Numbered from the stretch's first letter, positions 27,971-53,870 are shown. The stretch: DNA of 55,076 bases from a virus (IMGVR_UViG_3300025132_000049:1-55076); one strand, 5' to 3'. Numbers and translations are program-made. The notes: generated by a model not told the origin, from the sequence alone.

Positions 27971-28213
27971 TCAATAACCTCCTTCTATTTTATTTACCAT
28001 AGCATTGATGTCTTTCCAATCCATCTTTGCTATCTTATCATCTGAAACATCTGTTGTACTAGATATTGCAGGTGCAGGTGTAGTTGCAACTACAAACCCC
28101 GACTTCATCAGTATATTATCATCATTATATACTGTATTTTCTAACTTTTTTACTTTATCTACTAATTCTTTTAGTAGCATTAACATTTCATTTTCTTCAC
28201 TCATTTTTTTCAT
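27971..28213 (-). CDS. Small scaffold-like protein
   Basis: Coiled-coil N-terminus, NILMKSG, and a C-terminal KMDWKDINAMV resembling the scaffold end GMSWNEINNYV. Confidence 0.6.
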   Translation of the reverse strand: MKKMSEENEMLMLLKELVDKVKKLENTVYNDDNILMKSGFVVATTPAPAISSTTDVSDDKIAKMDWKDINAMVNKIEGGY

Positions 28214-28541
28214 CTCCTAATTTTCCTTTACTTTTTGGATATACCGTTCCTCTTAATTGACGGTATAGAATCTCATAATCCTTTCTTAATTCAGAGGCAG
28301 CAGTAGTCAATGCTAAATTAGCCTCATCTATTTTATTTATTTTTTTATTCAGTTTTTTATCTGATTTCATTACACCTAATGTTTTCAGTTCTTTTATTAA
28401 ATCATCTAATTTAGTAAAATCTTGCCCCATATATTCACTAGGTTCAGAAGATTGAAGTAATTTCTTAATCTTCTTTTTTTGTTTGGGCGATACTTTCTGA
28501 AAGATACCATTATCATTTTTAATTAATTCATATTCCCACAT
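28197..28541 (-). CDS. Hypothetical protein with W-tag variant (MWEYELIK)
   Basis: ORF track; coiled-coil character. Confidence 0.55.
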   Translation of the reverse strand: MWEYELIKNDNGIFQKVSPKQKKKIKKLLQSSEPSEYMGQDFTKLDDLIKELKTLGVMKSDKKLNKKINKIDEANLALTTAASELRKDYEILYRQLRGTVYPKSKGKLGDEKNE

Positions 28542-28547
28542 TATTAA

Positions 28548-29066
28548 TCACTCCTGATAGTTTATTCTTCCGGTTCTTCTATTAAACCTCTCTTCGTTGA
28601 ATTGTTGATTGTCATCATAGTCTGATTGCCTCCTAGCGTCATCATATTTAGTATTATCAAAATTATGACTACCTCGTATAGTTTCTCCTACCAGTTTACC
28701 ATTCCTAGTTAATACTTTATAATGAACTTCACATACTCTAAAACCGCACTTTCCACTATCAGAATATTCATCAGTATAACTTACATCACACCAATATTCT
28801 GCTTCATTCTTACATTTGCCGGGGTGGTCTGGATTACTTTTTGCCAACTCTCTATCAGCCATAGAACCATCATTAATATATTCACATTCAACCTTATCCC
28901 CTGTTTTAACTTTAGTCTTCATGCTTTGAGGTTGAGCCATTGAAGCAGGTGATGCTTGCCACGCTATATTTCTTGCTTTATCACTATCATCTTCTTTAGG
29001 CATCATAGTTTCTGGTCTTAGGTTTTTAAGAACCTCTTTCCAATCACCTTCACAAGCATTACACAT
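28548..29066 (-). CDS. Cys-rich protein with W-tag (DWKEVLK)
   Basis: C..., C..., C...C..H pattern suggests a zinc finger. Confidence 0.55.
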   Translation of the reverse strand: MCNACEGDWKEVLKNLRPETMMPKEDDSDKARNIAWQASPASMAQPQSMKTKVKTGDKVECEYINDGSMADRELAKSNPDHPGKCKNEAEYWCDVSYTDEYSDSGKCGFRVCEVHYKVLTRNGKLVGETIRGSHNFDNTKYDDARRQSDYDDNQQFNEERFNRRTGRINYQE

Positions 29067-30844
29067 TATTCTACACCTTCTTGTTCTATTCTTAGTTGGA
29101 GAATATCTCTTTTTTGTTCTATTAAACTTAACCTAGACCCGTCTAAGTCTACTGAGTCCATTGAAGGAGAAGCAGCCTTTCCACTTAATCGTTGCTCTAT
29201 ATTAGGTAATCTCGCTAATAAATCATCAACTAATTTCAATGCTGCATCATAATAGAAGAAGTATTCCTTTTTTTCATCCTTAAGATTTTCTGAGTATTTA
29301 AGTTCAAAAGACTTTTTAGCCTCTTCAAATATACTACTTGCTTTATTAGACAACTTTCTGAAATCGCTCACATTGAATCGTGAAGGGTCTTTCATAACCA
29401 AATGTCTTAGTTTCTTAATACTAGTCTTAGCACTTTGTAGATTTCTCATAGCATTCTTTAAATTAGTTTTACTAGTTATTTTCATTTTAGGATTAATTTC
29501 TTTAAGAGTACTTACTAATTCTTCATACTTAGGGGTAACAGAATCGTTATCCCTTAATTGATTTATTATGTCTGGATGGATGTTATTACGTTCTCCTGTT
29601 ATATTTTCTTGTAAATTATATAGAAACTGATTAGTTAATATACCATGAGTTTTAAGTCTAATCTTAGTTTCTCTAGTGATTTCTTCTTTACCTAACTCTT
29701 CTAATAATTTTAATAAAGCATTTTCTGCATCGTTAGGATAAGTTTTTCTTGAAGTTACTTCTTTTTCTTTAGGTGTAAATAACTGAACGATTTCTTCTTC
29801 ATAAGTAGGTAGTTTTAATTGCTTTATTGATTCAATTATTAATGGTTTTGTTACCTTACCTACCGGAGAGAGTATCATTGGTTTATCTTCACTACCTGTT
29901 TTAATTTTTAATTCTAATTCTGCTTTTCTTCTTTTCCTATTAGCATTACTTGCCTTTGTATTAATAGGTCGTTTGCCTATTTTCTTATACTGTTCTATTC
30001 TTTTCTTATATTCATCAAGGGTTCTAGGTTTCTTAGATACATTAGATTCATCCTTTAGTTTTTCTTCTGGTAATATAGGTTTATATTCAAATGTTCCTTT
30101 AAAAGCATTATTTAGAGTAGTCTTTGCTTTTTGATATTCAAGTATAGGATTCTCCGGTTTTTCTAATTCTTTTATTTTCTTACCATAACCTAATGATTCT
30201 AGTTTATTATTTCTATCTGCACGAAGTTTTTCTATATCTCCTTGTAAATCTTTTCTTTGGTCGTCTGCTTCTTTACCTTTAGCACCTTCTAACTCTTTTA
30301 TTTTACTGTTAATTTCAGATACTCGCTTCTTGTAATCTCTTTCTATTTTCTTAGAATCTTTTTCTTCAAGTGATAATAACTTATCTACTTTCTTATTCCA
30401 ATCAGCATCTATTTTTTCCCCCACTTGTTCTTGTAAAACATCTAATTGTTGTGAGTTCATCTCTTTAAATCTAGCAACACCATCATCATTTACTATTGCT
30501 GTTAATTTCTTAAGTCGCTCATATTGATTTGTTAAGGATTTGATTCTGTCGCTATGTAGAGAATATTCCTTTCCTTTAGCACTACCTTGACTTAATAATT
30601 CTTTTAATTCTTTTTCGGCTTGTTCTCTAACTTTATCAGAGCCTTTTCCGCTAAAATTAGTTATTGCTTTATCAATTTCTTCTATAATTGTAGCAGCAGG
30701 CACAGATAAATTATCATTTTCTTTGTTTAATGTACGTTTAACAGATGATAATATAGGATGAGCAACAGTATGTGCCTTTTGTATATCTTCTCCCTGTATT
30801 TCAACAGGTATTCTTAAGATATTCATAAAAGACATACTTACCAC
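29066..30844 (-). CDS. Large K/E-rich coiled-coil protein
   Basis: 592-aa ORF; the start SFMNILR resembles the tag with F/R substitutions. Confidence 0.6.
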   Translation of the reverse strand: MVSMSFMNILRIPVEIQGEDIQKAHTVAHPILSSVKRTLNKENDNLSVPAATIIEEIDKAITNFSGKGSDKVREQAEKELKELLSQGSAKGKEYSLHSDRIKSLTNQYERLKKLTAIVNDDGVARFKEMNSQQLDVLQEQVGEKIDADWNKKVDKLLSLEEKDSKKIERDYKKRVSEINSKIKELEGAKGKEADDQRKDLQGDIEKLRADRNNKLESLGYGKKIKELEKPENPILEYQKAKTTLNNAFKGTFEYKPILPEEKLKDESNVSKKPRTLDEYKKRIEQYKKIGKRPINTKASNANRKRRKAELELKIKTGSEDKPMILSPVGKVTKPLIIESIKQLKLPTYEEEIVQLFTPKEKEVTSRKTYPNDAENALLKLLEELGKEEITRETKIRLKTHGILTNQFLYNLQENITGERNNIHPDIINQLRDNDSVTPKYEELVSTLKEINPKMKITSKTNLKNAMRNLQSAKTSIKKLRHLVMKDPSRFNVSDFRKLSNKASSIFEEAKKSFELKYSENLKDEKKEYFFYYDAALKLVDDLLARLPNIEQRLSGKAASPSMDSVDLDGSRLSLIEQKRDILQLRIEQEGVE

Positions 30845-31050: not shown

Positions 31051-31053
31051 TGT

Positions 31054-31803
31054 TTAAACCTTCCAAGTTAATTTTCTTAGTTGGTATATATTATACCAAT
31101 CAAGAGTTTTACGATTCTTCATAATTCTTTTTACAACCAATTCACTTTTAGTTAATTCTGCGTCTGGAGTGTTAAGTAATTTCATTGCATATTCATATTC
31201 CTCTTCGCCTAACTCTCTTTTAAGTTTTTTAAAGTAGAACGTATCACGCTTATTTCTTCTTTCATCATTATTTATTTTAGAATAGTGATGAGTATAGGGT
31301 AGACTACTCATATCCGATAACATATTATGACGAAGACTACCAGATGAATATTTACTTCTTTTAGCGGAACGGTCTATATTATTCCAAATCTCAGATACTA
31401 GATGTCGCAACCTAGGCTTATCTCTATCAAAGATTGCGTTTCCTGAATAGAAAAGTTTTTTCATACTAGTATTCAATTCTTCTGTACTTATTTTTTTTAA
31501 TTTATCAAATGTGGCAATTCTATCTATTTCATCCAGAAACATACCCGTTGTGAGATTACTGTAAGTAGCATTAGAAAACTTAAACTCAATAGAACCTTTC
31601 ATGTCAAGAGTTAGTGCCTCATAATGGTTGAAAATATTTCTTAATGCCGTGTGGTTAGCATCTGTCATCTCATCTTCTGTTAAGTATAAAACATTAAATC
31701 TATGACTTCTTTCATCAACAGGTTTGAGGAAACGATGTAAAAAAAGTATTAATTTAGTTGCTTCCGGCCATTCATTAGATGATTTTAATATTCCCATCCA
31801 CAT
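31054..31803 (-). CDS. Hypothetical protein with W-tag (MWMGILKS)
   Basis: Coupled to the portal stop (TAATG). Confidence 0.6.
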   Translation of the reverse strand: MWMGILKSSNEWPEATKLILFLHRFLKPVDERSHRFNVLYLTEDEMTDANHTALRNIFNHYEALTLDMKGSIEFKFSNATYSNLTTGMFLDEIDRIATFDKLKKISTEELNTSMKKLFYSGNAIFDRDKPRLRHLVSEIWNNIDRSAKRSKYSSGSLRHNMLSDMSSLPYTHHYSKINNDERRNKRDTFYFKKLKRELGEEEYEYAMKLLNTPDAELTKSELVVKRIMKNRKTLDWYNIYQLRKLTWKV

Positions 31804-33470
31804 TAACCAACCCTCCTCTCATTTCTTTTGTCTACATTTTGATTACCTGCTTCTTGAGGTAGACCTGTAAACCTTTTATCTGGCCCAACACTCATACTTG
31901 GTTTATTTCTTGTTTTAGGTGGCTCTGTTGCTTTAACAGATGCAGGTTGCCCCGCTTCTTCTTTAGTTGGTCTATTACCTTGTTCCATCATTTGACCTAA
32001 TTGTGATTGGTCTATGTTTGTACCTGCATAAGGGTCTGTTTCAAACTTTTCATCTTTGCCTTTTTCTTTACCCTGCATTTCTTCTGGTTTAGGTTTAGTA
32101 TATACAAATCTGCCTTCATCATCCATATCAACTTCAAACCCTAGATTCTTTATTGAACCTGCTATATTAACTTCCATTTCTCTCTTTCTTAATCTAGCAA
32201 TATCATCTTCTTCTTCTGACGGGGGCAGTTTAAGTTGCCAATCTGTTATTCCAAACTCATTTGTGATAAAGGGCAATACATATTCATTCCAAATAGTCTG
32301 AGCCATTTCTACGGCTCTATTAGTAACAAGTATCTGCATACCTTCGTTATTCAATCCACCACTTGCTGAATTATCAGACATAAATATTTTACTTACTCCA
32401 TAGAAAGCAGATATTCTATCTCTTAAATCATCTTTAACAGCAACATAATCCATTTCTTTAAGGCTATCCATAAACTTAATCCATTCAATAGAACCCTTAC
32501 CGTTTTCTGCTTCTATTCCCATTACAGGAATAAAATGAGGGTCTTGTTCCATCTTTTCTTTAACGCCTCTCCAAAAAGATTTCATCGAGTCAATATTTCT
32601 TGTCTGAACAGCCAATAGACCTCTAGGCATTCTACTCTTAGAATAAGAAGAATTAACATAATTTTCCATAGCAAGCAAAGTAGTAATGTTATTCCATAAA
32701 GTAAGTACAGGAGATAAACCATATAACCTACTAGGATTATATTTGCTAAAATGCAATACTTCTCCTTTAATATAATATTGCTCATGTCCATTTACTCTAT
32801 TAACATAATGAACAGGGTACATTGTGTCTCCACATATTTCACATTCACCTATTGCATCTTCTGTTATTTGGTCGCGGTGTTTAATACAAGTAAATCCAGA
32901 ATTACCTTTATCTCCTTTTTCATCTGAATAAATGTGCATAGTTACAGGGTCGCCACGATAGATTTCTTTTATTTTGTGCATCCTTATATTACCTGCATTA
33001 TCAATAAAGTATTCTTTAACTAAAATAATATAAGCATCATCCATTATATTCAAATCATCTTCTAATTCTTTTAGAACATCAATAAATAACTGCTCAGAAT
33101 TATTTACATATCTATCTAAAAACTTATGTGCATATTTTAATTGTGCTTTATCTGGCTTTTTTAGATTAGTTGAACCGCAATCAGAACATTCAGGCACAGC
33201 ACTCTTGTGTTCATTACCACAATCAGAACATTTACTTACAAACTTTTCATCCCAAGTATACCCTCTTCTGAATATCTCGTTTTTTAATTGGGTTGTGCAA
33301 GTTCTAACAATTACAGATGATTGAGCAACATGATAAAGTATAGGTGAAGTTATCATATAACTTGTATCTTTTTCTTGAATACCCGGATTAAATATTCTTC
33401 TATCTTCTGGTACAGGTGTACCTCTTCTAAATAGATTTGTTAAAGAGAATCTTCTTCTTGGTTCTACCAT
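31803..33470 (-). CDS. Portal protein (HK97 family) with zinc-ribbon insertions
   Basis: EVLHF...YGLSPV, MPRGLL and RISAFYGVS portal motifs; CSDC-x9-CSDC and CxxH...CEIC insertions. Confidence 0.88.
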   Translation of the reverse strand: MVEPRRRFSLTNLFRRGTPVPEDRRIFNPGIQEKDTSYMITSPILYHVAQSSVIVRTCTTQLKNEIFRRGYTWDEKFVSKCSDCGNEHKSAVPECSDCGSTNLKKPDKAQLKYAHKFLDRYVNNSEQLFIDVLKELEDDLNIMDDAYIILVKEYFIDNAGNIRMHKIKEIYRGDPVTMHIYSDEKGDKGNSGFTCIKHRDQITEDAIGECEICGDTMYPVHYVNRVNGHEQYYIKGEVLHFSKYNPSRLYGLSPVLTLWNNITTLLAMENYVNSSYSKSRMPRGLLAVQTRNIDSMKSFWRGVKEKMEQDPHFIPVMGIEAENGKGSIEWIKFMDSLKEMDYVAVKDDLRDRISAFYGVSKIFMSDNSASGGLNNEGMQILVTNRAVEMAQTIWNEYVLPFITNEFGITDWQLKLPPSEEEDDIARLRKREMEVNIAGSIKNLGFEVDMDDEGRFVYTKPKPEEMQGKEKGKDEKFETDPYAGTNIDQSQLGQMMEQGNRPTKEEAGQPASVKATEPPKTRNKPSMSVGPDKRFTGLPQEAGNQNVDKRNERRVG

Positions 33471-33474: not shown

Positions 33475-34764
33475 TTATACCTCCATTTTACTATTCTCTT
33501 CTAATTTGGTTATATTATCTATATCAATATCCCATTTATCCCAATCAAACTTTGTATTATCGCTATGATTATAGTATTTCATTAATTTAAATAACTCATC
33601 TTTTCTTTCTTTATACCAATCTTCTTTCTTATTTTCTTTCTTTATTTTAATTAATTCTAGTAAAGTATTAGCATTATTTCTTTTTAGTTTAAAGTGAGGT
33701 AAACATTTGGTTAATAGTTTCTTAATGTCTGCCCCTGAATAAAAGTTAAGTCTATTAATTAATCTAGTATCTTGAGGAGATTTTTGGTCTAAATGTAACC
33801 TACCCATACCTAATGATTTGTGCATCTCTAACATAAACGCTTTACCTCTATTACCTGTTGCTACTAATCCTACTCTTGGGTTATGATTTTTATCCATTGT
33901 AATATATCCATCAGAATCAATAAACGCAGCAGTATAAGCCCATATATTCTTTTTAATCTCATCATTTATTTTATAATAAGCCCCATCAATATTAGTTATA
34001 TTTTCTTCCTTTGCTAATTTTGCTATAATTTGTGGAGAACTTCTTTTAAGTAATTTAGATGGTAAAGATTCATATATTTCTCTTGAAGAAATGCCCGGAT
34101 TAACACATACTGAGTTAAGTATAGATTTCCTAATCTCATCTTTTGGTGAGGTACTTATAGTGGTTTCCTTCAATATAGCCTTAAATGCCTTTTTTTGGTT
34201 AGCCATCTCCTTAGTCAATTTAGAATACTCTTTACCATACTGCACATCTTTTCGCTCTAGGCTTGATTCCCAATATTTACATAACGCATCTACTGCCCTC
34301 CTACGTCTATCTTCATCCTTGATTAAGTATAACTTGAATAATTTGTTTTCGTCTAATACCATATCTTTTAGAGGAGTCTTATATTTTTTAATCCAATGAA
34401 TACTATCAACACACTTATTCAAGTGTTCAGTATATCCATCTATCAAATCATCAATAGATTTAGTAAACTCTACCTTACTATCCCCTTTCAAAGTCCTTCG
34501 ATATTTTCTCATCTTTTTAACAATATCTGGAACACTATATCCTTTGATAGTATATTTATTTGGATAACTAAATAATACCTCCTTTGCTTGAGTTAAATTA
34601 ATGTCTCTTTCTGATGCAAACAATTTAATTAATTCATCATCACTACGCAAAGGTTTATCATTTAACCAATCAGATAATTTGATTTCTTCAAGCATTTCTT
34701 CTGCTTCTTCTACATCTTCTACCTTATCCGCATAGTCTCTAACTGCCTCTGCTTTTTCACCCAT
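33475..34764 (-). CDS. LAGLIDADG endonuclease-domain protein with N-terminal helical and wHTH regions
   Basis: AYTAAFIDSDGYI and LPHFKLKR motifs; NPGISSREIYESL wHTH-like segment. Confidence 0.75.
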   Translation of the reverse strand: MGEKAEAVRDYADKVEDVEEAEEMLEEIKLSDWLNDKPLRSDDELIKLFASERDINLTQAKEVLFSYPNKYTIKGYSVPDIVKKMRKYRRTLKGDSKVEFTKSIDDLIDGYTEHLNKCVDSIHWIKKYKTPLKDMVLDENKLFKLYLIKDEDRRRRAVDALCKYWESSLERKDVQYGKEYSKLTKEMANQKKAFKAILKETTISTSPKDEIRKSILNSVCVNPGISSREIYESLPSKLLKRSSPQIIAKLAKEENITNIDGAYYKINDEIKKNIWAYTAAFIDSDGYITMDKNHNPRVGLVATGNRGKAFMLEMHKSLGMGRLHLDQKSPQDTRLINRLNFYSGADIKKLLTKCLPHFKLKRNNANTLLELIKIKKENKKEDWYKERKDELFKLMKYYNHSDNTKFDWDKWDIDIDNITKLEENSKMEV

Positions 34765-34775: not shown

Positions 34776-36215
34776 CTAAAAATTAAGTCCTGATATACCC
34801 GAAGGCATTCCAATTTGAGCCGTAGTTGGCCCATCAAATATCTCCATATCATCTAAGAGTATAAACGATGCGGTTGGAGTCTGAGTAGCAGCATTGGCTA
34901 AAGCAAGAGCCATAACCAAATCGTCATGTGCGCCAACTCCTTCAAACTTACCCGATTCTGTGATAGAAAACATAGATAATTCTTCTATAATATTCATTGT
35001 CATCTTTCTACTGTTATTATCACCATAAGGTAGACTTATTTTGTTGTTTTCAAAGTTCATTTGTAGTCCCAATATGATTTCTTGCTTCTTTCTTCTAGTA
35101 GTATTGAAATCTCTAATGTTTAAATCAGTAACACTTCTCAATTCTTGAGTAAATGCCTTAGCAAACGTATTAGTTTCATAAAGTACGGCTTCTGGCTCAA
35201 ATATTTTACCAATTAACTGTAATTTTTGGATATTTTCTCTAAATTGCACATTTTTTGCTCTATCTATGTGAACAATAGACTTATTTTTGTTTTCATCCAC
35301 CTCTAAAACGCAAATTACATTGTAATCTCCATCTGTTGATATAGCAGGGTCTACTCCAACATAATATTTGTAGCCTTTTTCTTTTCTATGCCCTAATTTT
35401 AAGATTATATGCTCATTTTTAGCATTTTCAAGATGTTCTTGTCCAAATAATGCTGTACCTGTTGAAATTGGTATACAAAGATATTCTCTTGTAAACTTTA
35501 ATGACCCAATTTCTGCTTTTCTTTGCATTAGTGCTTCATAATCCCATCTTTCAGGCCAAAGAGGGTCATTATTAGAATCTAAACAAGGATATTTTCTAAC
35601 TGTATATGCACTATTCTCTTCTAACTGTGTAAATATATCAGTATAAGTAAAAGGAGTACCTATCATTCTAAGGTTAGCAGTATGGTGAAGTGTTGGTATC
35701 ATGTCTCCAAAGAACCAATCTGTAACTCTATTAATACCTGTCAAACTAAACTCTTTCAAAGGGTCGTCAATAATAATTTCTTGAGGGTGAAGTCCTCTAA
35801 TCTGAGAACCAACAGACCTTTCTAATATAGAATTACCATTAGTTAATGTAATGTTACCAATAGCCCATCCTCTTGATGGTCTAAACTTCTTTAATTGTGG
35901 TATGTTGAAATATCTGTCAATTTCTCTCATATGAACTAAAGTCTGCTTTTGATTAGAAGATATATATAGCATTTGAAAAGGTGGTTCTTTAAACACAAGA
36001 TTCCATACTACCCAACTGTGCATAAATACAGATTTTCCGTGGTCTCTTGAGCAAATAATTACTGTTCTATCTGTGTTTTCCATTGTTTCTAACCACTCTT
36101 GCATATATGGTGGAAACATTAGACCAAGGACATTCTGAAAAAAATATGGAAATGAGTTCTTAGATAACTCCATATCCATTTGATGAGTAAAATTATATTC
36201 ATTTAACTCAGACAT
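34776..36215 (-). CDS. terL: Terminase large subunit
   Basis: Walker A SRDHGKS, Walker B IIIDD, motif III GTP, RNase H-like GVDPA and HDDLVMALALA. Confidence 0.93.
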   Translation of the reverse strand: MSELNEYNFTHQMDMELSKNSFPYFFQNVLGLMFPPYMQEWLETMENTDRTVIICSRDHGKSVFMHSWVVWNLVFKEPPFQMLYISSNQKQTLVHMREIDRYFNIPQLKKFRPSRGWAIGNITLTNGNSILERSVGSQIRGLHPQEIIIDDPLKEFSLTGINRVTDWFFGDMIPTLHHTANLRMIGTPFTYTDIFTQLEENSAYTVRKYPCLDSNNDPLWPERWDYEALMQRKAEIGSLKFTREYLCIPISTGTALFGQEHLENAKNEHIILKLGHRKEKGYKYYVGVDPAISTDGDYNVICVLEVDENKNKSIVHIDRAKNVQFRENIQKLQLIGKIFEPEAVLYETNTFAKAFTQELRSVTDLNIRDFNTTRRKKQEIILGLQMNFENNKISLPYGDNNSRKMTMNIIEELSMFSITESGKFEGVGAHDDLVMALALANAATQTPTASFILLDDMEIFDGPTTAQIGMPSGISGLNF

Positions 36216-36540: not shown

Positions 36541-36555
36541 TCTAAATCACAGTCC

Positions 36556-36975: not shown

Positions 36976-36989
36976 ATTAATCTTTTCCT

Positions 36990-38075: not shown

Positions 38076-38079
38076 GTTA

Positions 38080-38847: not shown

Positions 38848-38851
38848 AATA

Positions 38852-43287: not shown

Positions 43288-43292
43288 CTAAA

Positions 43293-44207: not shown

Positions 44208-44212
44208 TTTGA

Positions 44213-44509: not shown

Positions 44510-44516
44510 TTTCTTC

Positions 44517-45091: not shown

Positions 45092-45092
45092 A

Positions 45093-45760: not shown

Positions 45761-45773
45761 TGTAACTTCTCCC

Positions 45774-46166: not shown

Positions 46167-46819
46167 TGTAATTTCTCCTCCATCTTTGCTTTTACATCTA
46201 ACCAAACTTGAGGATGATTCTGTGCTAATACTTCTTGCACTACTTGCATTTGTGCAACTATAATTGTATCTTGTCTCTTGTGTACGAGTTTACCTTTAAA
46301 CTCCATTAAGTATCTTAAACTCTCTCTAATTTCTTTAGCCATCTTAGTTAAACTATCTACATACTTAGGGTGCATTTCTTCTTGTTCAAATAAAATATCT
46401 ATCTTTTCTTCTAATCTAGTAATGGTTCTAGTCAAAGATTCTATCTCATCTACTTCTTTTTTTGCTATTATGTTTGCCGCAGCCTTTTGCACTAAAGGTT
46501 GTAAATGTTTTCTCATGTGCCTTTTTACTTGTTCTTCTGAACAATCAACCATTTGTGCTACCGCACTAGGAGTAATATTACCTTCTTTTAATTGTTCTTC
46601 TACTAATGAACGTAATTCATGCGTACATAGATTACATCTAGGATTTGACGCATCTACATATTCTCCCATATGATTTCTTTGATGTCTTGCTGATGTTCCA
46701 CTAGGCCAATCCATTTGTTTATCTAAATCATCTGGTGCAATAGATAATGTTTCTAACTGTGCTTCTAAATCATCACGCTGCTCATGGTTACAAAGCCTAC
46801 ATCTTCTTCGCTTTACCAT
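46163..46819 (-). CDS. Putative terminase small subunit with tandem Zn-finger/HTH repeats
   Basis: Two repeats CxxCxH...RHxRxH followed by a coiled coil and KEIRESL...GKL oligomerisation-like helices. Confidence 0.55.
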   Translation of the reverse strand: MVKRRRCRLCNHEQRDDLEAQLETLSIAPDDLDKQMDWPSGTSARHQRNHMGEYVDASNPRCNLCTHELRSLVEEQLKEGNITPSAVAQMVDCSEEQVKRHMRKHLQPLVQKAAANIIAKKEVDEIESLTRTITRLEEKIDILFEQEEMHPKYVDSLTKMAKEIRESLRYLMEFKGKLVHKRQDTIIVAQMQVVQEVLAQNHPQVWLDVKAKMEEKLQ

Positions 46820-48036
46820 ACTAACACCTCAGCCCATGACTTTTTGAGTTTCTTATCTTTTTTAGCCTCAACTTTTTCTTTCTTTTTAGCCTCAACTTTT
46901 TCTTTTTTCTCTTTAGGTGTAACATATCCTTTCAAATAAACTGGGCCTTTTCTACTTCTTCTAGCACAAAGACCTGTTAACAGAAATAGATTCTTAACCA
47001 TCCCTCTCGTTATATCTAATGAATAGCCTTTTACTTCTGCCTCTAACATTTCTTTAACACCATACACATCTTTAATTCTATTTGATTCTGTTTCATCATC
47101 TACTTTAAAAGTCATTCTTGAAATCATTCTTGTTATTTGGTCATCTCTAATATTACCTGTATTAGGATTTACTCCTCTACCAATATTATCTTTATTACCT
47201 ACTAATTGTAAAATTGTTTCTTTAATGTCATCAATAGAATACAACTCCTTTGATAATCCACCTCTAGGTACTCCTCTTAATACTAGTTTAACGTGTTCAT
47301 TAACTACTTTTTTACCTACTCCTTTAGCAGATTGTAATACTGTAAAGAGTCCGGTTGTTACTAACATACCTTCACCTCCCCCTTCTGCATACAATGCTTG
47401 CCACATAGGAGGTTTAGATGTATTTTCACTTGTTGTAGCCCAACTTTTAGGTACTGCCTCTAACGTCTCAGCATACTCTTTATTTTTGAATACTTTAGAT
47501 TTTAGGTTTCTAAAACTATTATAGTCCTTAGTTCTATAATGCCCATAATGTATCTTTACATTCTTCTTTTTAAATTGAGCAGTTTTTTTATTTACTCTTC
47601 TGAATATAGGAATAGTGAATGGTGTATTTCTAGGGTCAGCATCAGAATCTTTCATTTCATTTAAATGTTCAATATACTCATCTACTTTTTTCTGAAATCC
47701 CTTAGTTAGTATTTTTTTATCATCTTTAACTAATTCACTCATTTCTTTAATTAATGAACCTATACCATCTTCTTCTGATACAGGATTTTTTGCCTGTGGT
47801 CTATTTTCTATCCCATGTTTTTTAACTAATTCAAGTAAATTAATCGCCTTAACTCCTTTTATTCTCATTTGTTCTGGTGTCGCGGCTTTACATTCAGTTA
47901 CCCATTTATTGAATTGTGATTTTAGAACACTTGCATCAAATGTCTGAGTAATAATTACTTTATTACCATCTGAATTGGTAACAGTAACAGTCCTTCTGGA
48001 TTTTTTTGTAGTATCAGTCTTTGGCAATTTCGTCAT
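46813..48036 (-). CDS. Basic hypothetical protein, 407 aa, ending KKSWAEVLVW
   Basis: ORF track; GGAGG RBS. Confidence 0.6.
   Translation of the reverse strand: MTKLPKTDTTKKSRRTVTVTNSDGNKVIITQTFDASVLKSQFNKWVTECKAATPEQMRIKGVKAINLLELVKKHGIENRPQAKNPVSEEDGIGSLIKEMSELVKDDKKILTKGFQKKVDEYIEHLNEMKDSDADPRNTPFTIPIFRRVNKKTAQFKKKNVKIHYGHYRTKDYNSFRNLKSKVFKNKEYAETLEAVPKSWATTSENTSKPPMWQALYAEGGGEGMLVTTGLFTVLQSAKGVGKKVVNEHVKLVLRGVPRGGLSKELYSIDDIKETILQLVGNKDNIGRGVNPNTGNIRDDQITRMISRMTFKVDDETESNRIKDVYGVKEMLEAEVKGYSLDITRGMVKNLFLLTGLCARRSRKGPVYLKGYVTPKEKKEKVEAKKKEKVEAKKDKKLKKSWAEVLVW
46859..46905. repeat. 24-bp tandem duplication encoding KEKVEAKK x2
   Basis: TTTTTAGCCTCAACTTTTTCTTT repeated twice in frame. Confidence 0.8.
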
Positions 48037-48175
48037 CCTCCGGGTAAATATAATCCTTATCTATTTCTTTTTCATCGTCAGTTATTGCAGGTGGGTTTGT
48101 TGATAATAAAGGATTAGCACCATGACCGCCAAATGTTTGACCGCCAGATTCCTTTATTACACTCCACCACTTCAT
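48014..48175 (-). CDS. 53-aa W-tag peptide missed by the track (MKWWSVIKESGG...)
   Basis: Read by hand; ATGA-coupled to the upstream gene. Confidence 0.65.
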   Translation of the reverse strand: MKWWSVIKESGGQTFGGHGANPLLSTNPPAITDDEKEIDKDYIYPEDDEIAKD

Positions 48176-48465
48176 TCTAATTCCTCAATCCTCATTAATG
48201 AATTAGAAAGCATTTCTAATTGTTCTTTAATTCTAAGAGGCTCTAATTGTTTAGTTCGATTCGCATACAAATCTGCCTCTTCTATCATTTGATTAACCAT
48301 TCCTCTAACATCATTTGTGTTAACATTAGTTTTAAACATTTGAGGATAACTCCTTTGTAATTCTACTAAAGGTTTAATTAATTGATTTAAATCTGGGATT
48401 GGTTTGCTAAATATTTCACCTATTCTAGTCATATCCATTACTTTAATTATATCTTTCCAACTCAT
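48172..48465 (-). CDS. W-tag protein (MSWKDIIK)
   Basis: ORF track. Confidence 0.65.
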   Translation of the reverse strand: MSWKDIIKVMDMTRIGEIFSKPIPDLNQLIKPLVELQRSYPQMFKTNVNTNDVRGMVNQMIEEADLYANRTKQLEPLRIKEQLEMLSNSLMRIEELE

Positions 48466-49997
48466 TCTTCATCATCATCCTTTAAATTATCCCATTCGCC
48501 CCATCTTTCTACTTCTTTACCTGTTTGTTCTTCTAACCAATCTCTAAATCGTTCACGTTGTTCTTCTACTCTACTAAAAGATTCTGTTGGCTTTCCAATA
48601 CCAAAATCCTTTGATGAATCTTCTTTATAATCCTCAGTCCAACTATTAATTAGTTTTAAGCACTCATTATGTTGTTCCCATAAAGTACTATTTGCTAAAT
48701 TAGGCTTACCCATTTTTTCTGCCAATTCTTGAGATATTACCTTTTTAGGTACAATTAATGACTCTTCTATCTCAAACCTTTTTTGTTGCATCATACGACT
48801 TAATTTATCTGCGTTTATATTTTCTAATGTTCTCCTTATTTCTAATCTAGTTGATTCAGTCCACTCTCCTACATCAGATATAATATATAAATATAATAAA
48901 TCTCTTAACTCATCTGCACAAGGATTTCTAGTGTTAGCCGTCATTCTTCTTTTGTAATATTCACCAACAGGTTGTTTTTGTCCGGGTCTACCTCTTATTG
49001 TTCTAGCCCATCTAGGATGGTTTCTTGCAGCAGTATTATCTGGATTATCTTCATCTTCAACATCATCATCTCTTTCAAATATCTTTAAAATATACTGCCA
49101 TTTAGCCTTTTTAATCACTTTAGGCATTTTAATTAATAGCCCTTCTTTATTAACATCTATTTTATCTAGCAAAGTAATGGCCTCTTGAATTGGTTCTGGG
49201 AAATCTAACATGAACGCTACTTGTTCAGCATCGTCTTGTGGAATCTCTAATTGTTCAAACCCGAACTTACTTTTTAAATACTGCTTGATATTAGGGTTTA
49301 CTATATTAGCAATTTGAAACTTACCTTTAAACTCATCATCATTAATAGTAGACCCAAGAGATAGTTCTACTTTGTCTCCCTTAAAACGTCTAATTAAATT
49401 ATATAATTCTTTTTTATCGCCTGTCATTTCAATAGATTCTAAGAACTTTGATGTATTATATGCAGGGTATCTTTCGTTTAACCATTCTGATAATTCTTCA
49501 GCAGTAGCCTCATAATTAGTATATTCTTTAGGCCAAGGTACATTGGGTTGTTTAGGATTCACTCCCCAATCAATATCTTTATCTCCATAAGATTCCTTAA
49601 CCTTTTCAGCAAATCCTCTAATAGTTATTCTTTTAGAATCTTTATCAGTATTAGAAGTTCTTCCTGAGTTTTTTAATGGTTTACCTTTCAGTCTTTCTTC
49701 AAATGACTGTAAGCCTAAAAATATAATTCCACCACTTATCTTACCATAACATCTTGTGGTTATTGGATAAAACACTCCTTCATGCTCAAAACCATGTGTA
49801 ATAGCATTAATTTTTTCTGGTTTAAAAACTCTAGAAAGCATTGTGCCTTTACTACCTGCTCTAACTCTATCTGTTCCACTCTGACCAGATAAAGGAAATG
49901 CTTGTATTCTACTATAACCGAATGGTTTTAATAAATTATACCACATTGACTGTGCTTCTAATTCAGTAGAACGTCTTTCTATTATATTCATATTCAC
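48462..49997 (-). CDS. Protein with two internal W-tags (MWYNLLK, KWQYILK)
   Basis: ORF track; possible polyprotein. Confidence 0.6.
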   Translation of the reverse strand: MNMNIIERRSTELEAQSMWYNLLKPFGYSRIQAFPLSGQSGTDRVRAGSKGTMLSRVFKPEKINAITHGFEHEGVFYPITTRCYGKISGGIIFLGLQSFEERLKGKPLKNSGRTSNTDKDSKRITIRGFAEKVKESYGDKDIDWGVNPKQPNVPWPKEYTNYEATAEELSEWLNERYPAYNTSKFLESIEMTGDKKELYNLIRRFKGDKVELSLGSTINDDEFKGKFQIANIVNPNIKQYLKSKFGFEQLEIPQDDAEQVAFMLDFPEPIQEAITLLDKIDVNKEGLLIKMPKVIKKAKWQYILKIFERDDDVEDEDNPDNTAARNHPRWARTIRGRPGQKQPVGEYYKRRMTANTRNPCADELRDLLYLYIISDVGEWTESTRLEIRRTLENINADKLSRMMQQKRFEIEESLIVPKKVISQELAEKMGKPNLANSTLWEQHNECLKLINSWTEDYKEDSSKDFGIGKPTESFSRVEEQRERFRDWLEEQTGKEVERWGEWDNLKDDDEE

Positions 49998-50350
49998 ACC
50001 TTGTAATAAGTAGTCTTACCTGTTCTACCAACTGAGGATTGTTGCTTAGTCTTTAAACCATACTCTGAAATCCTATTTTTCAATACTTGTTCTAAATTGT
50101 TTGTATCATATTTCATGGCAGGGTTTAATTCCTTAATTTCCTTAGCAAGGTCTGATAAAGTATACCATTCTTCTTTATCCATTACTTGTTTGACCTGTTT
50201 GCTTAAAGTATCATAAAACTCTATACTTCTCTTGCCATGCTTCTTGCGAATATAATCAAGGTGTTTCATGTCATTAGGTTCTGCATACTTTTCAGCAAGC
50301 AATTCAAACTCCTTCATTTCTGAGGATTTAACTAAATCAAACCAAGTCAT
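49994..50350 (-). CDS. W-tag protein (MTWFDLVK), possible wHTH
   Basis: WYTLSDLAKEI helix pattern; start reassigned. Confidence 0.55.
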   Translation of the reverse strand: MTWFDLVKSSEMKEFELLAEKYAEPNDMKHLDYIRKKHGKRSIEFYDTLSKQVKQVMDKEEWYTLSDLAKEIKELNPAMKYDTNNLEQVLKNRISEYGLKTKQQSSVGRTGKTTYYKV

Positions 50351-50355
50351 TGTTC

Positions 50356-50619
50356 TCACCAATCTCTACAAGCCATACATCTAGCAGAGTAATCGCCTCT
50401 TTTGCAGGTAGAACAATTATGCCTCGCCCTAAATGATTTTCTTCTTTTACCCTTTCTTTTGCCAGAAACAGTAACTCCTTTTTGACCCCAATGAACTCTC
50501 TTATATCCACCACTACCATTAGGAACACATTTCATCCATTTCTTACCTTTACGTGTGGATGATGTTTTTTTAGTTGCTCTTGTGCAACGGCCTTCTTTAA
50601 CAATATCAAACCAACTCAT
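50356..50619 (-). CDS. W-tag basic Cys-rich protein (KGKKW...HWGQKG...RRKSFRARHNC...SAR)
   Basis: Motif recalled from small basic proteins of marine phages and large viruses. Confidence 0.65.
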   Translation of the reverse strand: MSWFDIVKEGRCTRATKKTSSTRKGKKWMKCVPNGSGGYKRVHWGQKGVTVSGKRKGKRRKSFRARHNCSTCKRGDYSARCMACRDW

Positions 50620-50623
50620 TTTA

Positions 50624-50737
50624 TCACTTCTTTATTGGTACGCAATTTGGAACTTGTTTTCCATTTTTGTCTTTCATGCCTATTTGTTCATAACCATCCC
50701 AACAAGGATTTTTCTTAACAACATTAAACCAAGTCAT
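50624..50737 (-). CDS. 37-aa W-tag peptide missed by the track (MTWFNVVKKNPCWDGYEQIGMKDKNGKQVPNCVPIKK)
   Basis: Read by hand; ATGA-coupled; CWxGY...VPNCVP module. Confidence 0.7.
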   Translation of the reverse strand: MTWFNVVKKNPCWDGYEQIGMKDKNGKQVPNCVPIKK

Positions 50738-51156
50738 TTTTTATCCTTCTCCCGTTGTAACTCTCTTAGTTTTTCCATTTGTTCTTTAACATTAGGATTG
50801 TAGCATGGATTATCATAAGTCAAAATATCTTCCAAAATAATCTGATTAGGTTTTACCACTTCATATGTGACATATACTTTAGTGTCAACAGGTGCGCCTA
50901 ATATTCGCAACATCATAAGGCTATGGTCTGATGCAGGGCGATGTGTTTTTGGGTCTGCTTTGTATGGAATAACCATGATTTTTTTTATATCTTGGTTTGT
51001 CATACAAATCCAACTAACAGATAATTCTTTTGATTCAGAAGAATATAACCCATTATAGGTAGGAACAAGCCCTTTAGCCATTATGGAACTCAAGTTAGAA
51101 AACGGAGTAGCATGATAATAAATATCTTCATTCTTTAATAGTTTAGCCCAATACAT
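50734..51156 (-). CDS. W-tag ADP-ribosyltransferase-fold (Tpt1/ART-like) protein
   Basis: YYHAT..NLSSIMAKGLVP...GLYSS...VKPNQI is a typical H-x-T ART-fold signature. Confidence 0.65.
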   Translation of the reverse strand: MYWAKLLKNEDIYYHATPFSNLSSIMAKGLVPTYNGLYSSESKELSVSWICMTNQDIKKIMVIPYKADPKTHRPASDHSLMMLRILGAPVDTKVYVTYEVVKPNQIILEDILTYDNPCYNPNVKEQMEKLRELQREKDKK

Positions 51157-51157
51157 A

Positions 51158-51550
51158 TTACTTATACTCCCCTATTATAAAAACCCATGACTTTCCGCCT
51201 CCACCAGATATAGATGCACCCCTTCTGATTATTAGATTACCTTTTCTTTCTTCCTCCACTAACGCATTTTGAATAGTCTTATCATACTTACCTCTTTCAG
51301 CATCTTTAAGTCTAGAAGCAGCCCTTAAGATTGAACCAATTCCATGACGAGGTATTTCTGGATTTTGTTTAATATAATTTTCTAACTGTTCTCTTAACAT
51401 TGGCTCAATAGCCCGTCTAATATTTACAAAATAATATGATGCAGGTTGTGCTTGATTAACCCAATTAACTACTGCTTCACGTACTAATGGATTAATAATA
51501 GAATTATTCCAATACTTACTACGGATTTTTAATACGCTATACCATTTCAT
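51158..51550 (-). CDS. W-tag protein (MKWYSVLK)
   Basis: Start reassigned after the GGGAGG RBS. Confidence 0.6.
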   Translation of the reverse strand: MKWYSVLKIRSKYWNNSIINPLVREAVVNWVNQAQPASYYFVNIRRAIEPMLREQLENYIKQNPEIPRHGIGSILRAASRLKDAERGKYDKTIQNALVEEERKGNLIIRRGASISGGGGKSWVFIIGEYK

Positions 51551-51768
51551 TATTCTACCTCCCAAAATGGCATATGTTCTACATAGAAAGGATATTTCAT
51601 AGCCAATCTTTTGAACTCTTTTAGGTTAGCCATACTTGCATGATTAAAAACATACTCTTGAAATAATTCATTATCTTCATCGGATATTTTATCCTTATGT
51701 TCAGTAACCCATGCTTTCACATCATCTAAAAACTTTATATCAAACTTTAATATATCTTTCCAATTCAT
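51550..51768 (-). CDS. W-tag protein (MNWKDILK)
   Basis: Start reassigned to the ATG. Confidence 0.6.
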   Translation of the reverse strand: MNWKDILKFDIKFLDDVKAWVTEHKDKISDEDNELFQEYVFNHASMANLKEFKRLAMKYPFYVEHMPFWEVE

Positions 51769-51784
51769 ATTCAATCATCTCCGT

Positions 51785-53644
51785 TTAGATATTATTACCC
51801 CTTTCTAAAAACTCCTTAATATACAAAGGATTATCAAACTTATCTCCCCTGTTTCCAAACTGCTCTATAAGTTTATTTACATCGTTATAAGATGGTGTAT
51901 CGCTTGGATTACGTTCATTAGTTTGAGGATTTATAGTTTCTACTACAATTTTTATTTCATAACTAATTATTAAAGTCTCTCCATTAAGTAAACCAACAGA
52001 AAACTGTTTTGATAAAGCATTGCCATTTCTAGTTTCTGATACCTCTACCTTATACATAAAATCTTTATCTTTATCATCAAGATAATTTTCTAATGCAGGG
52101 TAATATCCCGCTTGCATCTCTTGCCTCTCGGCAGTAGTAGGTCTTTTCACTTCTTCTTCTCTTTCGGTAGTTTCTCTATCAGAACCAACTGTGCCTTGTT
52201 GATTAACATAAAATGTCTTATTTGAAACAGCACCAATATCACCAAATAACTTCATATCTTTAATAGCATTCAAAACCGCAGGCGGAATACAAATTGCACC
52301 TGCTTTTGGTGTTTTATAACGTATCATTTTAGATGTGTTGTTAGGGCTAAAACCATTTACTTTCATACTCATCATCAGATTGCTATGTATAGTCCTATCC
52401 GAAATAAAAATAACAAACCTGTTTGCCTCTTCCAATTGTTCAAAAATGTTATTTTCCTTTTTTGGGTTCTGATAAAAACTCTTATCACTAGTATTTACTC
52501 CAAAAAACATATCCTCTAAATCTGCATCAGAAAAGGGTGAAAGTTGATATTGTTCGTGATGACCACTATCTACTACCATACTATCAACAATAGTATCAGT
52601 AACATATTGATATAAATCAATGTGTTTTCTAGACTCGGCTGCATTAACATTTCTTACGGTTTCTGTTCTGTTGTATTGAGAACGCGGGGTCTTTGTATCA
52701 CCTAGTTTTTGTTTCACGTTTATATTAGGTTTAAAATTAAATATTTTACCTATCCATATATCGCCTCGATTTCCCAACCCACTATCTAAAGTAGCATTTA
52801 ATTCTTTAAATTGTTGCCTTAAAGAATCGTGTTGTTCTGGTAATGCTAAATCTAGTGATTCATTTAAAATATATTTAGTAGCCTCATAATATAATGAATA
52901 ACTAGATAAATACGTGTTGAATGCTATCATATAATTTGATGAAGGGCGAGACCTGTCACTAGAATCATATTCCGTATTCGTTCTCTCAACGCCAATATCA
53001 CTAAATACATCTCTAAATACTGCCAGTACATATCGCATATGTAAGTTTTCAGGCAACATCTTAATTGCAGGTATCAATATTGATGTCGCAGAACGAAAAC
53101 GATAATTCTGCTTTAACTGTTTACCTGCCGATAGGGTAGCAGACGACCATTCTGTTATTGACGTTCCTAGAACTTTATCAAGACCTAACTCAGTTACTAT
53201 TTTTACTAACGTATCTCTAACCATGTTAGTTGCTTTTTTAAGATTATTTTCGTATTTTTTATATTCCTTTTCGGGATTAATTAACGGTAAGGATAGAATA
53301 GTGTGCATATCCCAATATTCCATTGCATCGCTTAGTTTATCATGTCCTAGGTCATCTTCACAATAATCAGTTAACAACCATAATCTAGAAGACATAGAAG
53401 ATGTAGTCATTATGTTCAAGAACATATCAAATACTTCTGTGCCTCCAATATTCCCTTCAATCATATCAATTATGTGAGATACACCTTCCTCTAAAGCATT
53501 AGGAGGTATTTCTTTCCGAGCCTGTTTTATTGTAATACCTTTAAGTAAATCTTGCTTCATATCGCTAACATTTATTCCCCTAGCATAAAATGAATCAAAA
53601 AGCCGTTCTTTAGGCCTATTCTTAACAACATTCATCCATGACAT
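51785..53644 (-). CDS. Large W-tag protein (MSWMNVVK), 619 aa
   Basis: ORF track. Confidence 0.65.
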   Translation of the reverse strand: MSWMNVVKNRPKERLFDSFYARGINVSDMKQDLLKGITIKQARKEIPPNALEEGVSHIIDMIEGNIGGTEVFDMFLNIMTTSSMSSRLWLLTDYCEDDLGHDKLSDAMEYWDMHTILSLPLINPEKEYKKYENNLKKATNMVRDTLVKIVTELGLDKVLGTSITEWSSATLSAGKQLKQNYRFRSATSILIPAIKMLPENLHMRYVLAVFRDVFSDIGVERTNTEYDSSDRSRPSSNYMIAFNTYLSSYSLYYEATKYILNESLDLALPEQHDSLRQQFKELNATLDSGLGNRGDIWIGKIFNFKPNINVKQKLGDTKTPRSQYNRTETVRNVNAAESRKHIDLYQYVTDTIVDSMVVDSGHHEQYQLSPFSDADLEDMFFGVNTSDKSFYQNPKKENNIFEQLEEANRFVIFISDRTIHSNLMMSMKVNGFSPNNTSKMIRYKTPKAGAICIPPAVLNAIKDMKLFGDIGAVSNKTFYVNQQGTVGSDRETTEREEEVKRPTTAERQEMQAGYYPALENYLDDKDKDFMYKVEVSETRNGNALSKQFSVGLLNGETLIISYEIKIVVETINPQTNERNPSDTPSYNDVNKLIEQFGNRGDKFDNPLYIKEFLERGNNI

Positions 53645-53654
53645 TATAATACAC

Positions 53655-53870
53655 CTATGTAAACATCATACATCTGCCTTGTTTATCTATATTTACAGTT
53701 GGCAACGTACATTTATTGTTTTTATTGTGTTTACACAATGTAGCATTACATACATCTATCTTACAATCGCCACCGCTAGGAAACATGGGTCGGTTTTTAC
53801 CTGCCTTCAAATCATCCTTTAATTGTCGCTGCCAACTATTCTTAACTAACTCCATCGTTTTTGGTGGCAT
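53655..53870 (-). CDS. Cys-rich DUF1540-like protein with W-tag variant (SWQRQLK)
   Basis: CNATLCKHNKNNKC...C matches the C-x4-C-x-HN-x4-C pattern. Confidence 0.6.
   Translation of the reverse strand: MPPKTMELVKNSWQRQLKDDLKAGKNRPMFPSGGDCKIDVCNATLCKHNKNNKCTLPTVNIDKQGRCMMFT

Follow-up and report, generated by a model that had tools for sequence, protein, structure and literature searches.

The viral contig IMGVR_UViG_3300025132_000049 (55,076 bp), analysed here over its entire length and referred to as the window, encodes numerous otherwise unrelated proteins that begin with the same short peptide. This tag, M-x-W-x-x-[ILV]-[ILV]-K, is present on 25 genes of the minus strand, which also carries all the long open reading frames (ORFs) of the contig, and one further gene has a variant with Phe in place of Trp. 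Counts in the window and in its relatives confirm that the tag is real and far above chance. It is selected at the peptide level, forms one gene block on the structural arm of the genome, and changes in concert with a motif found in the tail of the virus's prohead protease, at its C-terminus. The virus itself appears to be a group-B-like magrovirus. We consider it probable, with some reservation, that the tag is a prohead-docking label which mimics the protease tail and thereby loads soluble, unrelated viral proteins into the prohead.

A six-frame scan of the 55,076 bp for W-x-x-[ILVMF]-[ILVMF]-K returned 34 matches, 25 of them at or beside the starts of minus-strand genes and the other 9 scattered. 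Among the start-associated matches, 24 are located no more than 2 residues from the initiator Met, and one occupies residues 8-14 of a 172-amino acid (aa) protein (28548-29066). Between 36217 and 53870, the tag is found on 23 of the 30 ORFs, the untagged ones starting at 53870, 48036, 46819, 44566, 41317, 37539 and 37273, and none of the 23 genes below 28 kb, which include those for the tail proteins, the major capsid protein (MCP), the protease and a ligase, is tagged at the start. When the tag is stripped from the 22 window proteins that match the strict pattern, these fall into 22 separate BLAST families; altogether, the 25 tagged proteins, individually 37-657 aa long, sum to 4,507 aa. The preliminary description of this DNA, in which the tag had been noticed, thus holds on several counts: all 13 N-termini that it quoted sit at minus-strand gene starts, the lengths it gave are right, and the proteins are unrelated after the Lys, as it stated, at the BLAST level. 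Its wording that nearly every ORF from 36217 to 53870 is tagged, along with three near the portal gene, translates into the above 23 of 30 and into two tagged genes and two variants (MSFMNILR and MWEYELIK) between the portal and the ligase. Its assignment of the tagged genes to the head module does not hold throughout: most lie upstream of the terminase gene, in a block of small, variable ORFs that starts at a non-coding switch region.

The same pattern recurs in relatives of this virus. Among 254 terminase relatives in IMG/VR, 80 loci were kept for counts, and these contain 415 ORF starts with a match to the tag on the coding strand, compared to none on the other strand. Five complete genomes contain 9-15 matches each, clustered in about 20 kb, with 3 stray matches, and a reversed-pattern control yielded 0. 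The sequence logo derived from 365 non-identical N-termini reads M-S(56%)/N/T/K-W-[FEKQ]-[DENS]-[IV]-[LIV]-K, and conservation ends sharply after the Lys. The 429 tagged proteins form 156 BLAST families, 85 of which are singletons, and a Pfam match was obtained for only 7 of 117 family representatives. Across the 80 loci, the tags occupy the intervals from -10.5 to 0 kb and from +2.5 to +7.5 kb relative to the terminase large subunit (TerL) gene, with none past +8.5 kb. The complete relative G003 (99,250 bp, bounded by direct terminal repeats, with a TerL 81% identical to that of the window) consists of two divergent arms. Its structural-arm tags lie between the switch region and the ligase gene, and none of the 56 ORFs of the '+' (replication) arm is tagged; the motif is not, as the preliminary description had allowed for, equally frequent in replication genes.

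The prohead protease (23963-25174) holds the sole internal M-[ST]-W of the window proteome (17,545 aa) and also of the G003 proteome (30,967 aa). This protein exceeds the curated cut-off for Peptidase_S78 (PF04586, E 5.8e-10, 40.0 bits against a cut-off of 21) and also matches phrog_23555, head maturation protease; its long C-terminal helical region is scaffold-like. The tag-like motif, MSWNEINNY (residues 389-397; 23984-24010), was identified by homologue alignment and by a pattern search of the proteome, and is situated about 12-16 residues from the C-terminus. In an alignment of 40 homologues, M389 and W391 are invariant within a C-terminal M-S-W-x-[DE]-[IV]-[HN]-N-[FY], and M-x-W-x-[DE]-[IVL] is present in the last 40 residues of all 120 protease homologues listed. 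The expected number of internal matches, calculated analytically from composition, is 0.016 per proteome and 3e-5 per 40-residue tail. A structural model, whose mean predicted local distance difference test (pLDDT) score of 49 limits it to gross architecture, suggests that the protease domain is followed first by a helix, next by a disordered region and a long helix, and at the end by a short helix starting at the Trp. In phage HK97, the C-terminal part of the gp4 protease was reportedly shown by Duda, Oh and Hendrix in 2013 to place the enzyme inside the prohead. The C-terminal propeptide of the phage SPN3US protease has been proposed to be a prohead-targeting signal (PMC7411985, PMC9958956).

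A second magrovirus-like lineage, found through the genomic context of relatives with an A-F-D-R-A-W leader, employs a different tag (type 2, as opposed to type 1 of the window). It comprises contigs of up to about 100 kb, with GC content of 0.44-0.57, that encode a thermosome (loci L257-L264; records G006-G008 and G010). In these viruses, the N-terminal tag M-[TS]-A-F-[DE]-x-A-W-x-[LIV]-[VLM]-K-[AM]-P is found on nearly every gene of a 10-kb block (61 on the coding strand and 0 on the other); genome-wide, the counts by strand are 31 and 0, with a control of 0. That the type-2 protease tails would contain the type-2 motif instead of M-S-W was predicted beforehand, with a chance expectation of 4e-4 per tail. 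Three of the four tails read A-L-G-N-G-L-D-A-W-R-A-L-E-[DE]-L, and the fourth reads I-E-G-W-R-A-L-E-E-L. Within the type-2 loci, the internal pattern occurs in the three protease tails and in one other place, in locus L262, where an open-ended frame of 297 residues (open from 19579; called gene from 19604) has a full type-2 tag, A-F-E-D-A-W-S-M-L-K-N-D-P, at residue 154; either the tag is internal here or two genes have been fused. The residues immediately before the Trp agree between the tail and the tag in each lineage, M-S-W in type 1 and D-A-W or D-x-A-W in type 2, and in both there is a hydrophobic residue at Trp+3. This covariation is the strongest evidence that tag and tail are likely to address the same partner, and it backs the putative connection with the prohead, so that the interpretation offered in the preliminary description is partly supported. 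Another potential copy of the tag, F-N-I-L-K-S-D near the N-terminus of the protease, was dropped: type-2 proteases have D-F-I-L-K-S at that place whatever the tag type, and this segment probably belongs to the fold.

The tag is retained by orthologues of the carriers. Searches by body similarity alone, with the starts inspected afterwards, yielded 101 homologues of the window carriers, of which 4 are cut by the end of the locus. Among the 97 uncut homologues, 52 possess the strict tag and 20 match a looser pattern, 18 of these being real by eye (GTG or TTG starts, a slightly longer leader, or internal placement); of the 25 that fail both patterns, 24 still begin with M-x-W, with one extra spacer or one substitution. 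A Trp-centred start is absent from 3 of the 97. In the family of the 172-aa protein, the tag is kept at an internal position behind a short Cys motif. In the fast-evolving family of the 589-aa protein encoded after the portal gene (29066-30835), an alignment of 12 sequences, with 13-33% identity to the window copy, has M1, F3 and L7 as the sole invariant columns. The Phe variant of the tag was found 19 times on the coding strand and 0 times on the other. Homology of this protein to halovirus head proteins was not supported, as a tblastn search of 50,697 phage records gave no match.

Among the carriers is the 140-aa protein with the start MYWAKLLK (50734-51156). In its AlphaFold model (pLDDT 92), residues 1-10 are the sole weak block (mean 62), with no secondary structure before the first strand. 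The top 12 Foldseek matches of the model are archaeal Tpt1/KptA proteins (E 9e-5 to 8e-4, probability 1.0, TM about 0.45), followed by other ADP-ribosyltransferase (ART) enzymes, and H15, T17, Y38 and D77 are invariant in the 18 sequences of the family, as alignment columns rather than as positions mapped onto a solved active site. No Pfam or NCBIfam family matched this protein, and a sequence search of the PDB returned only a chance-level match; the model and the structural matches place its body in the ART fold. A full-library search produced 25 relatives, 17 of which were fetched and aligned: 13 of the 17 are untagged and begin 1-6 residues ahead of the conserved Y-H-A-T, 1 has the same tag, and 3 have the leader A-F-D-[RL]-[AG]-W-x-[LV]-V-K-x-P. 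Most homologues of this carrier elsewhere are untagged, and the tag is an add-on to domains also found without it. Several type-2 carriers begin the body with [LMY]-[FY]-H-G-T, which suggests that ART-like cargo appears repeatedly.

Other carrier bodies include DUF5754, PAP2 and zinc ribbons. With respect to function, the Pfam, PHROGs and NCBIfam searches of the carriers are nearly blank, and 0 of 49 type-2 carriers match Pfam. The tagged proteins are predicted to be soluble: a hydropathy of 1.6 over 19 residues is reached by 1 of the 429 tagged proteins compared to 9 of 102 untagged G003 proteins, a contrast set in which some of the transmembrane-positive proteins are supplied by the membrane proteins of an Arf-like GTPase module.

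A possible site of proteolytic clipping is suggested by the capsid protein. The MCP gene (22596-23957; HK97-like, SU10_MCP, by profile matches) encodes a candidate maturation site, L-L-K|S, at residues 26-29 (23871-23882), identified from homologue conservation: h-h-K-[SAGQ], where h is hydrophobic, is found in the first 60 residues of 118 of the 120 MCP homologues listed. The h-h-K ending of the tag resembles this conserved L-L-K|S/A. The type-2 MCP has L-L-K|A-D-S-P at the matching place, and the type-2 tags end with K-[AM]-P. The MCP of HK97 is cut after a Lys. A hypothetical cut after Lys8 of the 140-aa carrier would leave a start three residues before Y-Y-H-A-T, similar to the starts of the untagged homologues. 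From these resemblances, we infer that the prohead protease may cut after the tag Lys.

Under the mechanism that we favor, the tag, in the form M-[S/T/N/K]-W-x-x-[IV]-[LIV]-K, would serve as a portable docking peptide that brings soluble, unrelated viral proteins into the assembling prohead by imitating the short motif around a Trp that the virus has in the C-terminal tail of its prohead protease/scaffold. Tag and tail would share a docking site inside the prohead, either on the interior of the capsid protein, on the scaffold or on the portal. Docking would lead to encapsidation, followed by cleavage by the prohead protease behind the Lys of the tag; the proteins set free in this way, which add up to about 0.5 MDa at one copy each and include the ART-fold enzyme, would travel with the DNA into the next host as fast-changing effectors. 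By analogy with known systems, we infer that tagged proteins may be present in virions, clipped after the Lys and injected into the host. A bolder version, which we put forward tentatively and with slightly less than even confidence, is programmable loading, whereby any soluble protein fitted with an 8-12-residue copy of the tail motif would be docked, clipped at the Lys and injected; 15-27 proteins per genome, drawn from at least 156 families, would be delivered this way, and co-evolution of the tag (M-S-W-x-D-I-L-K in type 1, M-T-A-F-D-x-A-W-x-h-h-K-A-P in type 2) with its receptor would keep the cargo private to each lineage.

Several observations weigh against the docking label. These viruses are uncultured, and packaging, cleavage and binding are proposed by analogy. 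In the nearest cultured relative, HVTV-1, none of the 58 coding sequences examined is tagged, so that the virion data published for it cannot be carried over; its protease tail contains only K-S-W-E-Q-E. The resemblance between tail motif and tag is limited to six positions at the beginning (M-S-W-x-[DE]-[IV]), after which the tail continues with [HN]-N-[FY], not h-K. In type 1, various residues follow the Lys (K, E, A, N, R and others), and this lack of conservation is poor evidence for a fixed cleavage site. The covariation comes from two lineages, with patterns defined after seeing the data. Most of the tagged genes are promoter-proximal, next to the switch region, small and highly variable, and in these respects also resemble early host-takeover genes. 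The main tag block of the type-2 genomes is not beside TerL but 20-30 kb upstream of it, and the thermosome gene adjoins the block. Finally, about 25 cargo species per genome, some of them over 600 aa, would exceed any described case.

Several alternative explanations have to be considered. The tag might be a recognition or processing signal for the prohead protease. Instead of being delivered to the next host, its carriers would work within the prohead or the infected cell, either as disposable factors for core, scaffold or assembly or as proteins that clipping switches on or destroys, and would then be degraded or left behind. The link to the protease tail would be explained just as well, the h-h-K ending is common to the tag and the candidate MCP site, and most T4 core components are degraded after assembly (PMC9958956). 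Assembly factors are usually conserved, however, whereas the 156 unrelated families with fast turnover and the ART-fold enzyme resemble conflict or effector genes, so we regard this possibility as unlikely.

Alternatively, the tag could bind a non-capsid partner, such as a host chaperone, a proteasome activator, a membrane site or a viral hub protein, and provide host-takeover proteins with shared localisation, stability or timing, the protease tail using the same partner for reasons of its own. The switch-proximal position of the block of small, variable ORFs, reminiscent of early regions, and the distance of the type-2 block from TerL, next to the thermosome gene, would both fit. The viral thermosome itself can be discarded as a common receptor, given that Cpn60_TCP1 is found in 0 of 5 complete type-1 genomes compared to 4 of 4 type-2 records. 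With respect to host partners, a lineage-blind DNA pattern of the tag core detected at least 134 stretches in viral contigs among the matches listed, whereas the same pattern in 596 Gb of cellular genomes gave 36 scattered single matches in unrelated taxa, where a rough hand estimate of the chance level is about 26, with no clusters and none in Poseidoniales. Because clusters occur in viruses and scattered single matches in cells, the tag is a viral invention, not a borrowed host signal, and a host-derived origin is not supported. Furthermore, the motif is found in just one other viral protein, an enzyme located inside the prohead, and replication-arm genes are never tagged. Taken with these findings, a partner outside the capsid seems rather improbable.

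A role of the gene start in translation, as an enhancer of initiation or early elongation acting through the nascent peptide or the codon context, or in the DNA itself, as a boundary at which recombination shuffles gene cassettes, with no function in the finished protein, appears highly unlikely. Codon 2 is indeed skewed to A-N-T (AGT 163, AAT 38, ACT 22), with Ser almost never encoded by TCN (TCA only 3). The tagged genes are tightly packed, with Shine-Dalgarno-like sequences, and the cassette-like turnover of the bodies would fit recombination at a shared 5' end. However, when the window tags are aligned on the Trp codon, the information resides in TGG, in T at codon position 2 of both hydrophobic residues, and in AAR, whereas positions 1 and 3 are free. 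Among the relatives, there are 306 distinct 21-nt versions of the tag, and the second hydrophobic position uses six Leu codons (TTG 48, TTA 42, CTA 38, CTG 26, CTT 24, CTC 14) as well as Ile, Val and Met codons. Because of the six Leu codons and the 306 nucleotide versions, selection must act on the peptide, not on the DNA, in agreement with the preliminary description, which had proposed a peptide signal conserved at the amino acid level. A function confined to the gene start is also difficult to square with the internal tag of the 172-aa family, with the occurrence of the first six tag positions in the protease, at a distance of 12 residues from its C-terminus, with the two lineages whose different tags are each matched by their own protease tail, and with the lack of tags on the replication and tail genes of the same genomes. 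The AGT skew is consistent with a single ancestral DNA sequence behind all tags, or else with a preference for A after ATG. The possibility that the tag is merely a relic of one ancestral gene that was duplicated many times, with bodies diverged beyond recognition, would likewise account for the near-constant AGT codon of Ser, but is extremely improbable, because the bodies belong to clearly different folds and families with untagged homologues (ART, DUF5754, PAP2, zinc ribbons), because selection is required when the sole invariant columns at 13-33% identity lie in the tag, and because the tag changed in concert across all carriers between the lineages.

Comparison with known systems helps to place the proposed docking label. 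In phage T4, the internal proteins IPI-III and Alt carry a capsid targeting sequence (CTS) at the N-terminus (PMC7411985, PMC9958956). As in T4, a short N-terminal peptide is common to otherwise unrelated, non-essential, soluble proteins of one virus (25 carriers here), there is a link to the prohead protease, and one carrier is an ART (Alt in T4 and the ART-fold protein here); the T4 carriers are thought to serve in conflict with the host. Unlike in T4, the host is archaeal and the head is of the HK97/S78 type, and homology between the tag and the CTS is not expected because the head type and the protease family differ. Furthermore, there are about 25 carriers per genome and more than 150 families in the lineage as opposed to a handful in T4, and the magrovirus tag mimics and co-varies with the protease tail. 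Packaging, cleavage and sufficiency of the T4 signal have been demonstrated by experiment; those of the magrovirus tag are putative.

In phage P1, the N-terminal 30 residues of DarB, which belongs to the Dar antirestriction system, suffice for capsid targeting, and darB adjoins the portal and protease genes (PMC9024508). The parallels with the magrovirus tag are the N-terminal signal and the location of genes next to those for the portal and the protease; the P1 signal is sufficient for loading large cargo into the head, directed against host defence. The P1 authors report no N-terminal consensus for the Dar proteins and a signal longer than 9 residues, in contrast to the strict 8-residue consensus here. 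The ejection proteins of giant phages such as SPN3US also come close, since numerous proteins inside the head are packaged alongside the DNA and cut by the prohead protease at a shared motif (PMC7411985, PMC10052503). Unlike the tagged proteins, these have long propeptides (up to 111 residues), no common short tag, and a T4-like cleavage motif. The SPN3US protease gp245 is similar in that its non-catalytic C-terminal part is proposed to bear the prohead signal (PMC7411985). For neither gp245 nor HK97 gp4 is the tail signal known to be copied onto other proteins, whereas here it heads dozens of them. In encapsulins, a short conserved cargo-loading peptide docks diverse cargo inside an HK97-fold shell. 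Unlike the tag, encapsulin peptides are usually C-terminal and operate in cellular nanocompartments with no protease and few cargo types; docking of the magrovirus tag to the MCP is only proposed.

No mention of the tag was found in the portions of the magrovirus literature covered (PMC5434244, PMC11706807 and PMC10160649, supplements aside). A full-text literature search for a capsid targeting sequence in an archaeal virus found none. Magroviruses, the viruses of Marine Group II archaea (Poseidoniales), rank with the most abundant viruses of archaea in surface ocean waters. If the docking label is what it seems, up to a quarter of the genes of these very abundant viruses, all of them 'hypothetical', would be head cargo, and archaeal viruses would have their first described capsid-targeting system, implying that such a system can arise by copying the targeting tail of the protease itself. 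The two tag types with matching protease tails amount to a natural reciprocal experiment. Virion-delivered effectors of uncultured viruses could then be recognized in metagenomes by a simple rule on sequence, and the tag, as a very short and defined peptide, could be tested as a means of bringing foreign proteins into shells of the HK97 type. Should programmable loading hold, no virus of this size would be known to bring a larger set of effectors into the host in its virions. Even without packaging, a single shared partner is required to account for an 8-residue tag strictly conserved across more than 150 unrelated families.

The affiliation of the window follows from its untagged structural genes. 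A near-complete replication module of archaeal type, another trait of magroviruses, is absent from the window, whose completeness CheckV estimates at 57%. On the minus strand, the window encodes TerL (34776-36215; phrog_38, E 8e-48), an HNH-like gene (nuclease; 33475-34764; profile matches), the portal protein (31803-33470; Pfam and PHROG profile matches and cultured relatives), an ATP-dependent DNA ligase with long extensions (25214-27724; profile matches), the protease and the MCP, with tail genes occupying the region below the MCP gene. The portal protein is 28-29% identical to those of the haloarchaeal tailed viruses HCTV-5 and HVTV-1, and a Methanomassiliicoccales virus is also among the nearest cultured relatives. 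The published hallmark of magroviruses is a head module resembling that of haloviruses into which a ligase and a nuclease are inserted (PMC5434244), and the window combines a haloarchaeal-related portal with a ligase and an HNH-like gene in this manner. The assignment to an archaeal virus in the preliminary description is supported by the cultured relatives of the portal and by the magrovirus-like architecture. In G003, the family-B DNA polymerase (PolB) is split (80443-83029; L085 443-3029) into ORFs of 439 and 308 aa, with a 114-aa ORF between them, and a split PolB is known from magrovirus group B1 (PMC5434244). Besides the split PolB, the replication arm of G003 encodes a clamp-loader-like AAA ATPase, a second ligase and PD-(D/E)XK and ERCC4 nucleases; MCM, primase and PCNA were not detected by a Pfam scan of 22 G003 proteins. 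The window contains 0 tRNA genes, and no Rfam family matched in it.

The ligase of the window is 836 aa long, with the ligase domain spanning only residues 249-436 or so, such that about 235 N-terminal and about 330 C-terminal residues are outside any family match. An Arf-like GTPase membrane module is located at 18706-21472. In HVTV-1, the interval from the portal to the protease is occupied by three very large proteins, one of them annotated 'zeta toxin'; it is a matter of speculation that the magrovirus arrangement is the HVTV-1 idea split into many small tagged genes.

The tagged genes themselves, all on the minus strand, were delineated from the ORF start and the motif scan unless indicated otherwise. 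From the switch region downward, these are a 619-aa gene starting MSWMNVVK, with no Pfam, PHROG or NCBIfam match (51785-53644); a 72-aa gene, MNWKDILK, in BLAST family 4 with 14 members (51550-51768); a 130-aa gene, MKWYSVLK (51158-51550); the ART-fold gene described above; a 37-aa gene, MTWFNVVK, whose body resembles internal segments of several PHROGs (50624-50737; PHROG matches and scan); an 87-aa gene, MSWFDIVK, very basic and DUF5754-like by profile matches (50356-50619); a 118-aa gene, MTWFDLVK (49994-50350); a 494-aa gene, MWYNLLK, with the start set at the tag Met (48462-49946); a 97-aa gene, MSWKDIIK (48172-48465); and a 53-aa gene, MKWWSVIK (48014-48175). The 87-aa protein is extremely rich in Lys and Arg and could be a DNA-binding internal protein.

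Further toward the terminase gene, there follow a 130-aa gene, MSWFNIIK (45774-46166); a 122-aa gene, MKWFSVLK (45392-45760; motif scan and homologue starts); a 99-aa gene, MSWFDIIK, for which 5 of 5 body homologues are tagged (45093-45392; motif scan); a 133-aa gene, MSWKDILK (44690-45091); a 58-aa gene, MSWKYLLK (44517-44693); a 304-aa gene, MDWFTVIK (43293-44207); a 657-aa gene, MWSSILK, in BLAST family 3 with 14 members (41314-43287); a 255-aa gene, MKWFSLLK (38080-38847); a 111-aa gene, MSWEKILK (37740-38075); a 67-aa gene, MSSWFDFVK (37536-37739); a 57-aa gene, MSWIDIVK (36990-37163); a 139-aa gene, MSWQDILK (36556-36975); and, directly upstream of the terminase gene, a 107-aa gene, MSWKDVLK (36217-36540). 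Right after the portal gene comes a 249-aa gene, MWMGILK (31054-31803), followed by the 589-aa protein with the Phe variant MSFMNILR, recognized by family alignment, then the 172-aa protein with the internal tag DWKEVLK, identified by the scan and internal in the four orthologues found, and a 114-aa protein, MWEYELIK, a weak variant with one extra spacer (28197-28541), similar spacer variants being present in its orthologues.

The tag block also holds three conserved untagged proteins, of 821 aa (38852-41317), 407 aa (46813-48036) and 218 aa (46163-46819). The 821-aa and 407-aa proteins have no family match in Pfam, PHROGs or NCBIfam, and the ESM Atlas gave no usable match for the tagged 657-aa and the untagged 821-aa protein. 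The 218-aa protein has a zinc-ribbon-like start and weak helix-turn-helix/transposase-like matches, and is possibly the small terminase subunit. The first gene of the arm (53655-53870) encodes a DUF1540 protein of 71 aa in which residues 11-18, and not the start, read N-S-W-Q-R-Q-L-K, similar to the tag. In the non-coding switch region upstream of the block, the 10-bp palindrome ACCATATGGT is present in 4 exact copies at 54290-54691 (0.06 expected; 0 of 100 shuffles reach 4), spaced 93-172 bp apart and all within this region, with a near copy at 54204-54213; the array is a candidate operator or origin array.

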